Shown: positions 17,293 through 20,259 of the stretch, one piece after another
Position numbering within the stretch: position 1 is the first letter of the stretch
How the letters are laid out: each line of letters starts with the position of its first letter
Assembly: GCA_023205875.1 (NCBI GenBank)
Contig: CP060755.1
Coordinates: forward strand, 992,001 to 1,056,000
Source of the DNA: Chloropicon primus
Lineage: Eukaryota
Reading direction: 5' to 3'
DNA: 64,000 nt
Notes under the pieces: model-generated
What the model saw: only the letters and a program-made list of their open reading frames with translations
Database searches by the model: none
What the model was told of the DNA's origin: nothing
Position numbers and translations under genes: made by a program

Positions 17293-18402
17293 ATGGCAGT
17301 CAACCGAGACGACACAACAATGAAGGAGGAATATCTTTGCCTCGGCTTGATGAGTGGAACCTCGTTGGATGGCGTCGACCTCTGCCTCGCTCGTTTCAGG
17401 CCTGGATCGTGGGAGGACTTTGAGATCGTCGAGGCGGAGACGAGGGGCTACCCCGATTCTTGGCGAGCGCGCCTCAAGGGAGCTTTTGAGGCCAGTGGTG
17501 GCGACTCCGAGGAGCTCGTCCAGTTGCACGAGGATTACGGGACCTATCTTGGAAAGCTCGTCAAAAGCTTCCTGAGCGACAGGGGTGTCGATGGGGTGGA
17601 CCTGATTGCCTCTCACGGGCACACGGTGCACCACCGGCCCGACCTTGGTCTGACGCGACAAGTGGGTAGCGGGAAAGCGATCTGCGAGGAGACTGGGGTC
17701 ACGGTGGTGTCCAATTTCAGGGAGCAGGACGTCAAGTTGGGGGGGCAGGGGGCTCCCCTCGTCCCGATTGGCGACGAGCTCCTGTTCAAGGGCTACGAGG
17801 TGTGCTTGAACCTCGGGGGCATTGCTAACCTTTCGTTCTCGTCCGAAGGCAAGAGACTGGCGTTCGACATTGTCCCTGTGAATCTGGTCCTCAACCACTA
17901 CGCCGTCTCCAAGCTCGGCCTTCCCTACGACGACGGTGGCAGCACGGCGAGAGAGGGCGACCTCGTCCCAGCTCTGCTGGACGTGCTGAACGCCCTCGAG
18001 TTTTATGACAAGGCCTTGGGACCGAAATCGTTGGGATACGAGTTTGTGGTGGACACGATCTTCCCGCTCCTCGAGAACTCCGGGGTGTCGAGCACGGCGG
18101 ACGTCCTGCGCACGTTCACGGAGCACGCGGCTTGCCAGATTGCGAAGACGCTCAAGGGCACGGGAAAGTCCAGGGTGCTCGTTACGGGCGGCGGGGCTTA
18201 CAACACCTTCCTCGTGGAGCGGATCAGGACCTTGAGTGGTTTCGACGAGGTCTGCGTTCCTGACCCCGAGATTGTCGAGTTCAAGGAGGCCCTCATCTTT
18301 GGCCTCTTGGGCGTCCTCAGGCTCGAGGGGATCAACAACTGCCTGTCCAGCGTCACGGGAGCGCAGAGAGACCACTGCAGCGGCGACTTGCACCAAAAAT
18401 GA
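17293..18402 (+). CDS. anmK: Anhydro-N-acetylmuramic acid kinase, Bacteroidetes-type
   Basis: GLMSGTSLDGVD, SHGHTVHH, DVKLGGQGAPLVPIGD, NLGGIAN, AFDIVPVN, YDDGG, PKSLG, TGGGAYN, FKEALIFGLLGVLR, NCLSSVTGA. Confidence 0.93.
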   Translation: MAVNRDDTTMKEEYLCLGLMSGTSLDGVDLCLARFRPGSWEDFEIVEAETRGYPDSWRARLKGAFEASGGDSEELVQLHEDYGTYLGKLVKSFLSDRGVDGVDLIASHGHTVHHRPDLGLTRQVGSGKAICEETGVTVVSNFREQDVKLGGQGAPLVPIGDELLFKGYEVCLNLGGIANLSFSSEGKRLAFDIVPVNLVLNHYAVSKLGLPYDDGGSTAREGDLVPALLDVLNALEFYDKALGPKSLGYEFVVDTIFPLLENSGVSSTADVLRTFTEHAACQIAKTLKGTGKSRVLVTGGGAYNTFLVERIRTLSGFDEVCVPDPEIVEFKEALIFGLLGVLRLEGINNCLSSVTGAQRDHCSGDLHQK

Positions 18403-18471
18403 GCGCTTGCCTTCAAAACAGCCGAGACCCGTGTTGCCAGTTGTTATATAGAGATAGATTATGGCTCCGTC

Positions 18472-18804
18472 TTACTCGAGAAGCTCCGCCCCGCTCTGCT
18501 CCTCTTCTTCTTCAGAAGGGACGGCGGCTTTTGCTTTGCCCGTTCCCGTTCCCTTCTTCATGGCCCGGAGTCTGAGCCTGATCGGACCCTTGAAACCCCT
18601 CGGGTCGTCGACCACCTTGCCCTTCTGTAGGATCTCCAGTCGACCCTCCTCGACCAGGTCTCGCGCGACTCGCCGCGTCAACTCCATCAGCGGCCTCCAG
18701 TTCCGAGGCCGAACCCTCCTGGGTATCTCCGACGGTCAGCACGTCTTCCTCAACCCCCTCTCCTCCAACACCTCCACCATCGCCTCCCGGATCAACGACT
18801 CCAT
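18472..18804 (-). CDS. DUF3253-family protein with in-frame TGA (18736-18738) at the conserved Cys; candidate selenoprotein
   Basis: Hand translation from ATG 18804: MESLIREAMVEVLEERGLRKTC*PSEIPRRVRPRNWRPLMELTRRVARDLVEEGRLEILQKGKVVDDPRGFKGPIRLRLR...*. Recalled family consensus R..KTICPSEVAR..WR.LM..R..G.I.I.QKG...GPIRLR. Confidence 0.8.
18493..18577 (-). other. Eukaryotic SECIS element (type II-like) embedded in the coding sequence
   Basis: AUGAA (18561-18557), GAAGGG-A-ACGG stem, GAA apical adenines, CG(G)GC/GCCG minihelix, CCGU-CCCUUC, UGAA (18514-18511). Lower helix GCUC/GAGC and CUCC/GGAG. Confidence 0.75.
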
Positions 18805-18856
18805 CCAGAGAACTTTTGGATAAGAGTGAGATCACCCCATCGTCATCGTCATCGCC

Positions 18857-20259
18857 ATGGCGCCGAGGCTTGGTGCTTGGTGCCGCGGGGGCGCGGGGGA
18901 GGCCTCGAGCTTGAAGCGGAGGGAGGTCAGAGACCTGGTTGCAACGTTGCCCCTCTCATCCAACACCTCCGGATCGAGAGAGGGGAGGAGGGTTTCCGCT
19001 GGGGCGTCGTCGTCGTCGTCGTCGAATCCATGGGACGCGTTTTTGAGGTTCTCGAGAGCGTCGGTGGCCGCACTCGCGATCCTGATCTCCGTCGAGTCCG
19101 GCCTCGACGACGTGGTTCTGGGCTCCCAGGCCTTGGCGACGAGCCTGCCCCCCTCGAGGAGCGCGGCGAGCTTGGCCGCGGAGGAGGACGCGGTTGTGAA
19201 CATTTTCAGGGAAAACACGCCAGCAGTTGTCAACATCACCAACCTGCAGCAAGTTCTCGCGCGGTCCGGGGGCTCGCTCGACATGACGGACGTTCCGGTG
19301 GGCACGGGGTCGGGGTTCGTTTGGGACAACGAGGGCCACGTCGTGACGAACTTCCACGTCATCAAAGGGGCCTCGATGGTGAAAGTGACACTGATCAACA
19401 AGGAAACGTTCGACGCTCGCGTGGTTGGCTACGACGACGACAAGGACATTGCAATCCTTAAAGTCGAGGGGGTGAAGCCCTCGGACCTCGTGCCCGTGAG
19501 ACTGGCGAGAAGTGACAAGCTCCTGGTGGGCCAGCAGGTCTACGCGATAGGGAATCCCTTCGGCCTGGACCACACGATGACTGGAGGCATCGTGTCTGGC
19601 CTGGGCAGGGTTATTCAGTCGCAATCGGGCAGGCCGATCCGGGGTGCCATCCAGACGGACGCGGCCATCAACCCGGGAAACAGCGGGGGGCCGCTGCTGA
19701 ATCGATACGGGCAGCTCATCGGCGTCAACACCGCGATCCTCGATCCTTCTGGAAAGGTGAGCTGGGCTACTGGGTGCTTGCTTCTGCAGGACTTCTGACT
19801 TCTGACTTCTCGCTCTTCCGTTTGTGTTTTGGCGTTACGAACCAAAAAAAGGGCGCCAACGTGGGCGTAGGCTTTGCCATCCCGGTCGACACCGTGAAGG
19901 GAATCGTGGACCAGATCATTAAGTACGGCCGGATCGTGAGGCCTTACCTGGGGATCACCCTGGCGCCGGACGGAGCCCTGGCTCAGCTCGGGAAGAAGGG
20001 CGTCCTGATCCTCGACGTTCCGGACAACTCCCCGGCGGCCGGGATCCTCCAGCCCACGTACCGGTCCTTCACGGGGATCGTCCTCGGCGACGTGATCACC
20101 GCTCTCAACGGCCACCCGATCGAGACGTCCGCGGACTTGTTCAGCGAGCTGGACGACCTTCGTGTGGGGGACTCGGTGACCCTGTCGTTGGAGAGGAACC
20201 AGGTCCAGGAGGAGGTCTCCGTGACGCTGGGCAGCAAGACGACGACCTTCGAGAGTTGA
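18857..20259 (+). CDS. Deg/HtrA serine protease with PDZ domain (plastid Deg1-like); intron 19757-19851
   Basis: GTGSGFVWD..HVVTNFHV, DIAIL, AIGNPFGLD, IQTDAAINPGNSGGPL, GFAIPVD, then PDZ. Bipartite transit-peptide-like N-terminus. Confidence 0.92.

Follow-up and report, generated by a model that had tools for sequence, protein, structure and literature searches.

The window, by which we mean the whole 64,000-nt stretch of Chloropicon primus DNA that was analysed, carries on its minus strand a frame running from an ATG at 18804 to a TAA at 18472, with one in-frame TGA at codon 23. The frame encodes a DUF3253 (PF11625) protein, lies between a convergent anmK gene and a divergent protease gene, and contains a hairpin shaped like a selenocysteine insertion sequence (SECIS) (Table 1). 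The Pfam match over residues 4-79 scores 83.6 bits (E = 1e-23, gathering cut-off 22.1). AlphaFold models a winged-helix domain with a pLDDT of 93-98 over residues 1-80. The closest structure is PDB 2ns0 (Rhodococcus RHA04536), which the algal protein resembles in both sequence (E = 1.7e-33) and fold (TM 0.86 on target, rmsd 1.3). Bacterial members of the family carry Cys at the position where the alga has its TGA. NCBIfam returned no model for the protein.

Table 1. Features of the DUF3253 locus of C. primus (positions are those of the window).
Feature	Position	Strand	Evidence
Single-exon CDS, 110 aa, DUF3253 (PF11625), in-frame TGA read as Sec (predicted)	18472..18804	-	Domain match; no joint or indel in X1, X4, X5
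DUF3253 winged-helix domain, residues 4-79	18568..18795	-	Pfam; PDB 2ns0; AlphaFold pLDDT
In-frame TGA, codon 23, Cys-Sec-Pro-Ser-Glu motif, predicted selenocysteine	18736..18738	-	Cys in 246/249 homologs; U in O. lucimarinus candidate
C-terminal tail, 31 aa, predicted unstructured, holds most of the hairpin	18475..18567	-	pLDDT 60-66, without secondary structure; same tail in P0002, P0025, P0003
Type II SECIS-shaped hairpin, wholly in CDS, codons 76-104	18493..18577	-	Folding, pattern scan, recoding
Helix I 5' arm, pairs with 18493-18502, encodes last domain beta-strand, weakly predicted	18567..18577	-	Fold, p ~0.2
5' core AUGA, Met82 codon and first base of Lys83	18558..18561	-	Sequence
Helix II (18556-18546 with 18515-18524, one bulged A), apical GAA (18545-18543), helix III (18542-18540 with 18525-18527), 12-nt loop	18515..18556	-	Sequence, whole-mRNA fold
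3' core UGAA, last base of Ser97 and Glu98; fits KGAW consensus	18511..18514	-	Sequence
True stop codon TAA, 18 nt past the hairpin 3' end	18472..18474	-	Sequence
Gap between convergent stops, 69 nt, without SECIS pattern	18403..18471	.	Scan
anmK, convergent neighbour, PF03702, E 2.5e-62	17293..18402	+	Pfam
DegP-type protease, divergent neighbour, ~95-nt intron near 19753-19847	18857..20259	+	Spliced in X4, X5, X7

The start codons of the DUF3253 and DegP genes are 52 nt apart (18805-18856), leaving a very short shared promoter region. The DegP intron is spliced in runs X4, X5 and X7, so RNA is present in these runs. The anmK gene (17293-18402, plus strand) encodes a bacterial-type peptidoglycan recycling kinase in a green alga. 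It has no match in the other algae listed in a table of the C. primus paper, which suggests horizontal transfer. Two positions outside the DUF3253 gene deviate from the window: at 19004, in the DegP N-terminal serine run, all four aligned runs hold one extra CGT unit, and at 18270, in anmK, X1, X4 and X5 differ. Both are allele or assembly differences.

Longer, fused DUF3253 homologs are represented by three of 7995 candidates, one being a fusion with a photolyase-related domain (P0288, 608 aa, PF04244); the other fusion partners seen were HemD, DUF4385 and DUF3891. On account of this one photolyase fusion and of faint fold neighbours among DNA-binding winged helices, our best guess is that this small winged-helix protein assists in DNA repair and that its Cys-Sec pair is reactive. 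No alkyltransferase domain was present in the 14 longer DUF3253 proteins scanned, and the link to DNA repair thus remains weak.

Homology extends to both sides of the TGA, which aligns to a conserved family Cys, as expected of a selenoprotein gene. This position is Cys in 246 of the 249 homologs that span it; the full set numbers 285, of which 36 do not span position 23, and was retrieved in part by a query with C at that position. In an alignment of 125 sequences the position is among the near-invariant columns. P0287, a 649-aa UvrB that shares the cluster of P0176 with a 56-aa DUF3253 fragment, probably through a clustering artefact, was excluded from the homolog counts. The frame is open from the TGA (18738-18736) to the TAA (18474-18472). 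The published C. primus annotation lists PSTK, SBP2, eEFSec, SelW and SelT. The 64-kb window contains no tRNA genes.

A selenocysteine (Sec) form of the family is already on record. In the available part of supplement S5 of PMC3753652, Ostreococcus lucimarinus chr12 529744-530025 appears as Seblastian candidate index 15 with a grade A SECIS (Infernal 21.06). The ranking in which it appears comprises 186 candidates (its hScore is 7.56), and the name DUF3253 is not given to it there. It is distinct from the hypothetical selenoproteins of Lobanov 2007, as the coordinates of all three lie on other chromosomes. Sec in DUF3253 thus has an independent prediction from a distant green-algal class, which is the strongest evidence from outside the locus for the UGA as a Sec codon.

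We also checked contigs of relatives for the TGA. One of them, X8, has the same anmK-DUF3253 arrangement, including a syntenic anmK copy. Its alignment passes the TGA and reaches 18740 with 17 differences, and the X10 piece ends at 18732 with 16. The one difference within 18733-18740 probably falls on the wobble base of codon 24, and the TGA is therefore likely retained in this relative, as judged from difference counts and not from displayed letters. Past 18740 the 30-letter loose end of X8 has the look of an intron end (a branch-point-like CTGAC, then AG). If real, this intron would lie in the Cys codon beside the UGA, where the window gene has none. The loose end of X10, a contig like that of X8, translates to a peptide present in the protein of C. 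roscoffensis, the closest named green-algal homolog.

These data bear on the simplest alternative, that the TGA is a real stop. The locus would then be a pseudogene or yield only a 71-aa product from Met40, and the hairpin would be a by-product of the purine-rich tail. In its favour, 15 of the 36 homologs that do not span position 23 (15 of all 285), including the annotated C. roscoffensis protein, begin at the Met40 equivalent. A start after an in-frame UGA, here Met40, is however what gene callers produce. Such starts could equally come from introns. The domain match spans both sides of the TGA, the codon falls on a near-invariant Cys of the family, the ortholog from another algal class has Sec there together with a grade A SECIS, and the syntenic X8 contig aligns across the site. 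We therefore regard a genuine stop at codon 23 as improbable.

In six homologs, P0196 (an MMETSP transcript), P0146 (Chlamydomonas schloesseri), P0180, P0186, P0191 and P0267, the start lies on the Met40 equivalent or a little before it. The label of P0196 describes it as a complete ORF, so that a stop in the same frame should precede it. All six may be further Sec-DUF3253 genes clipped at the UGA. A metagenome scan covering 31 of 64 parts gave five loci, four of them bacterial-type DUF3253 genes with Cys-Cys and one spurious. A degenerate pattern for the TGA form had two matches in GTDB genomes, both rejected as chance since their translations are nothing like DUF3253; the L007 genome has no PF11625 match. 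The same kind of pattern had no matches in viral contigs.

The hairpin has the parts expected of a type II SECIS, helix I being weakly predicted. Its core pairs AUGAA with UGAA in tandem GA-GA fashion, in agreement with the UGAN/KGAW consensus. Helix II consists of ten Watson-Crick pairs plus a closing A-U pair, with one bulged A and no mismatch. In the whole-mRNA fold its pair probabilities are 0.91-0.97, dropping to 0.47 beside the bulge where the register is ambiguous. The helix is within the range of 7-15 pairs, bends little and has no mismatch past the core. In the unpaired apical GAA, the AA lies 13 nt after the AUGA, at the upper limit of the loose pattern (10-13 nt). Helix III has 3 bp (p 0.56-0.77) and a 12-nt loop, and the apical part as a whole measures 21 nt (8-30 nt allowed). 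The hairpin passes those structure checks of the SECISearch3 filter that could be applied by hand: it has the GA-GA core, a stem2 of 10-11, 21 nt in its apical part and a bending of 1. The preliminary description had listed the AUGAA, a 10-bp helix with a bulged A, an AA about 12 nt above the core, a small third helix, the UGAA and a lower helix, and we found every one of these in place, the AA being at 13 nt. The lower helix, helix I, is made of two 4-bp parts. It forms in the minimum free energy structure of 18493-18577, whilst in the whole-mRNA fold its outer four pairs reach p = 0.21.

The element is on the same strand as the UGA, which lies 174 nt from the core and 158 nt from helix I. 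The minimum UGA-SECIS spacing, given as 51-111 nt in the available part of PMC3753652, is thus exceeded. In its location the hairpin departs from the usual 3'UTR placement: it lies wholly upstream of the TAA, as had been described from the letters, and the UGA of the AUGA core is out of the reading frame.

To assess how rare such a structure is, we used our own SECISearch-like filter, which combines the loose SECISearch rules (Mix et al.) with a core consensus (Mariotti et al.) and was run without a positive control. Over both strands of the window, 25 pattern rows yielded four passing sites. The hairpin was the top match and alone lacked a helix II mismatch. The other three (+31315, -59645 and -48552) have two such mismatches each, and by eye their upstream frames hold no obvious selenoprotein. 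Block shuffling, with 806 windows amounting to 103 Mb, gave 1485 passing sites (14 per Mb); 78 of these fell in the middle class and nine in the class of the hairpin, whose bounds were set post hoc with the candidate already known. At the plain pass rate, the ~340 nt that separate the UGA from the anmK stop would contain a passing site with a chance of ~0.005. Synonymous recoding of codons 70-110, drawn from the codon usage of five window genes, gave seven passing sequences in 5000 and none of the hairpin's quality. The structure thus depends on codon choice and not on the peptide.

Compared with 200 shuffles each, the upper stem was more stable than 198 (z = -2.57) and the 85-nt element more stable than 194 (z = -2.30); for a wider 111-nt stretch z was only -1.41. 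Rfam, searched without a positive control, gave no SECIS match at E ≤ 10, its hits being chance matches to miRNAs and snoRNAs, and on this point the data suit a hairpin that is a by-product of the tail behind a genuine stop.

A second alternative keeps the selenoprotein and moves its SECIS. The working element would be a non-canonical one further 3', for example at the AUGAG at 18296, antisense to anmK, and the in-frame hairpin would be accessory or a chance structure. There is room for it. RNA contigs run unbroken across the 69-nt gap, which the preliminary description had measured correctly, into anmK. On the minus strand a TGTAA, which we take to be the green-algal polyadenylation signal, occurs at 18202, antisense inside anmK and 270 nt past the stop, so that the 3'UTR may extend over a few hundred nt; a TATAA lies at 18448 in the gap. 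A SECIS in the 3'UTR is the rule, which the Ostreococcus ortholog follows, and the sensitivity of our filter is unmeasured. The site at 18296 nevertheless fails the filter with at most four helix II pairs and folds into a different shape. When the core and apical rules were relaxed, a scan of 18740-16000 found six sites, of which the hairpin was the sole one to pass in the 2.7 kb after the UGA. The rarity of the in-frame hairpin under both shuffling and recoding also counts against an accessory or chance origin. We give a downstream element a small chance, if a little more than a genuine stop at codon 23.

Next, we checked whether the hairpin is carried in an unbroken coding sequence. The preliminary description had named a sequencing error that hides an upstream stop as a way for its proposal to fail. 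X1 (DNA, possibly the source), X4 and X5 (both RNA) contain no indel, joint or other letter in 18472-18650, and the gene as a whole is without indel or splice in all three. Its sole difference is in X5 at 18651 and corresponds to E52K of the database protein P0002. The RNA contigs have their ends beside the start codon, at 18806 and 18783, and DegP is where other, separate contigs begin. These ends fit a transcript of the DUF3253 gene, although the contigs give neither strand nor rare isoforms. X7 aligned outside the DUF3253 gene.

The database proteins P0002 and P0025 have tails identical to that of the window gene. In P0003, which is 82% identical, the reading frame continues over the full length of the hairpin. 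This protein has eight changes in 42 domain residues and, in the tail, three changes and a one-residue deletion. Traced by single-base paths, one tail change hits the variable position after the AUGA, another the apical loop, and the third turns a G-C pair into G-U. The deleted residue belongs to the Glu run at the internal loop. All three substitutions are compatible with the structure, against 42 of 98 reachable changes (chance 0.08, assuming minimal codon changes). As a protein-level proxy, P0003 is thus suggestive of a hairpin that is kept. Not all relatives share the tail: C. roscoffensis has an unrelated one of 38 aa and that of P0013 is unrelated too. As far as proteins show, the translated-SECIS layout would not be genus-wide. 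At 80% likeness, the relatives' contigs X8, X9 and X10 cover 18330-18434 and 18644-18740, which are outside the hairpin, and in X17 nothing aligned, which is no proof of absence.

A third alternative accepts the hairpin as the SECIS and holds that most ribosomes stop at its edge, through an isoform that went unseen or a frameshift that lets the core UGA be read. Such a stop has a parallel in the Lokiarchaeota, where, in the available part of the source, VhuU.1 uses the UGA of an AUGA core as its stop. Moreover, in 63 of 160 homologs the C-terminus is no more than six residues away from the last domain strand (RLRL). In the alga, however, the core UGA is out of frame, X1, X4 and X5 are free of joints and indels, and no GT donor was seen between the last domain strand and the core. 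The same open tail is also found in P0002, P0025 and the 82%-identical P0003. An edge stop thus appears unlikely, much as the genuine stop at codon 23 does.

Taken together, our results indicate that the UGA stands at the family Cys and that the hairpin within the ORF is likely the gene's only SECIS, so that the UGA would be read as Sec and the hairpin would itself be translated as a predicted unstructured tail. We put the probability of this reading at roughly 78%. The proposal that a eukaryotic SECIS lies in the CDS of a Sec gene is in this way supported by the Cys/Sec match, the Ostreococcus ortholog, the lack of a downstream rival and a gene in which neither a hidden stop nor a splice was found, in so far as sequence comparison can speak to it.

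Eukaryotic SECIS elements sit in 3'UTRs as a rule, and in eukaryotic Sec decoding SBP2 binds the GA/GA core of the SECIS and recruits eEFSec with Sec-tRNA. By the same mechanism, SBP2 would bind the hairpin's GA/GA kink-turn core, which follows the UGA at 174 nt, and recruit eEFSec with Sec-tRNA. Once Sec is inserted, the ribosome would have to unwind the hairpin and displace SBP2 before reaching the TAA. The hairpin would therefore refold between ribosomes, and read-through would probably be less efficient than from a 3'UTR SECIS, as for the coding-region SECIS in PMC1802603.

The in-frame position is probably derived, a stop having been lost or an older tail deleted, since the Ostreococcus core lies ~10 nt after the stop and the 63 homologs mentioned end near the last strand. 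In such an origin, a stop just after the domain would have been lost, or an older tail deleted along with its stop, joining a 3'UTR SECIS to the frame. An in-frame SECIS would be tolerated because the tail is unstructured. Compaction or stop loss had been proposed before as the origin, and either would be plausible, although the RNA contigs run across the 69-nt gap and the UTRs may therefore overlap anmK. The position of the stop relative to the hairpin in orthologs, put forward as a check, gave a divided answer. P0003 is open through the whole hairpin, and in O. lucimarinus the core follows the TAA.

A broader and more speculative idea, to which we give some credence but which is probably wrong as a whole, is that compact picoalgal genomes maintain and pass on the translated SECIS as a stable design. 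The hairpin would recode the UGA and encode the tail at once and be melted by each finishing ribosome, acting as a built-in throttle on selenoprotein output. Such genes would make up an overlooked share of picoeukaryote selenoproteomes, as pipelines discard SECIS matches within coding sequences. That searches restricted to 3'UTRs miss genes of this kind had been suggested from the letters alone. It holds for Lobanov 2007, where SECIS candidates inside known coding regions were removed. It is uncertain for Seblastian, which, in the available part of PMC3753652, counts the SECIS distance from the end of the homology alignment and not from the stop. The one thing that could therefore trip it is helix I, which overlaps the domain end by ~10 nt.

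A eukaryotic SECIS is taken to belong in the 3'UTR since translating ribosomes would disturb SBP2 binding, and the tested natural counter-example we found in the literature is viral. The algal gene and its Ostreococcus ortholog, with a SECIS just after the stop, would form a natural pair for studying how SBP2, eEFSec and elongating ribosomes get along on the same piece of mRNA, and at what cost a SECIS is placed in frame. The case also serves as a warning that selenoproteomes of compact algal genomes may be undercounted. It strengthens DUF3253 as a probably real, unnamed selenoprotein family with a putatively chemically reactive conserved cysteine.

By name, DUF3253 had no mention in the literature we searched. 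The family is missing from those listed in the main text of the algal selenoproteome paper, and neither the BSepDB supplement nor the passages on DUFs in a 2026 review of prokaryotes mention it. The Sec form of DUF3253 is nevertheless not new, given the Ostreococcus candidate with a 3'UTR SECIS in the available Seblastian supplement. That candidate shares with the alga the C-U-P-S-E ... GPIRLRLR sequence, a similar tail length (33 aa), a type II SECIS and a similar apical geometry. It differs in that its SECIS core lies ~10 nt after the TAA, in the 3'UTR, so that no more than the border of helix I reaches the stop and the codon before it.

On published coding-region elements, the excerpts available to us describe three cases. 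In Lokiarchaeota, the lokiSECIS overlaps VhuU.1 and the UGA of its AUGA core is the gene's stop (PMC4989117). It shares with the algal hairpin the AUGA-GA type, the overlap with a CDS end and a compact genome, but is archaeal and overlaps in part, whereas in the alga the whole element would be translated. The SelW gene of the horseshoe crab Carcinoscorpius rotundicauda has a predicted SECIS in its ORF (Lobanov 2008, PMC2397514), as the alga does, but also a second one in the 3'UTR, whereas only the in-frame one was found in the alga. In a ciliate GPx case, by contrast, Sec is lacking and the SECIS is on the reverse strand.

The closest parallel is fowlpox GPx4 (Mix, Lobanov and Gladyshev, PMC1802603), which likewise has a eukaryote-type SECIS in the ORF downstream of a Sec UGA. 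According to the available part of that paper, the coding-region SECIS supports Sec insertion in mammalian cells at lower yield and fails when its core is mutated, and location is not a functional requirement. That gene is a viral GPx and has been tested, whereas the algal one is a cellular nuclear DUF3253 gene known from sequence alone. In the literature on coding-region SECIS elements that our search covered, most subscription papers being outside it, we found no cellular eukaryotic gene with its sole SECIS in frame. What is new is thus a cellular eukaryotic gene whose only recognisable SECIS is, on the predicted reading of its UGA, translated, the tested precedent found being fowlpox GPx4.
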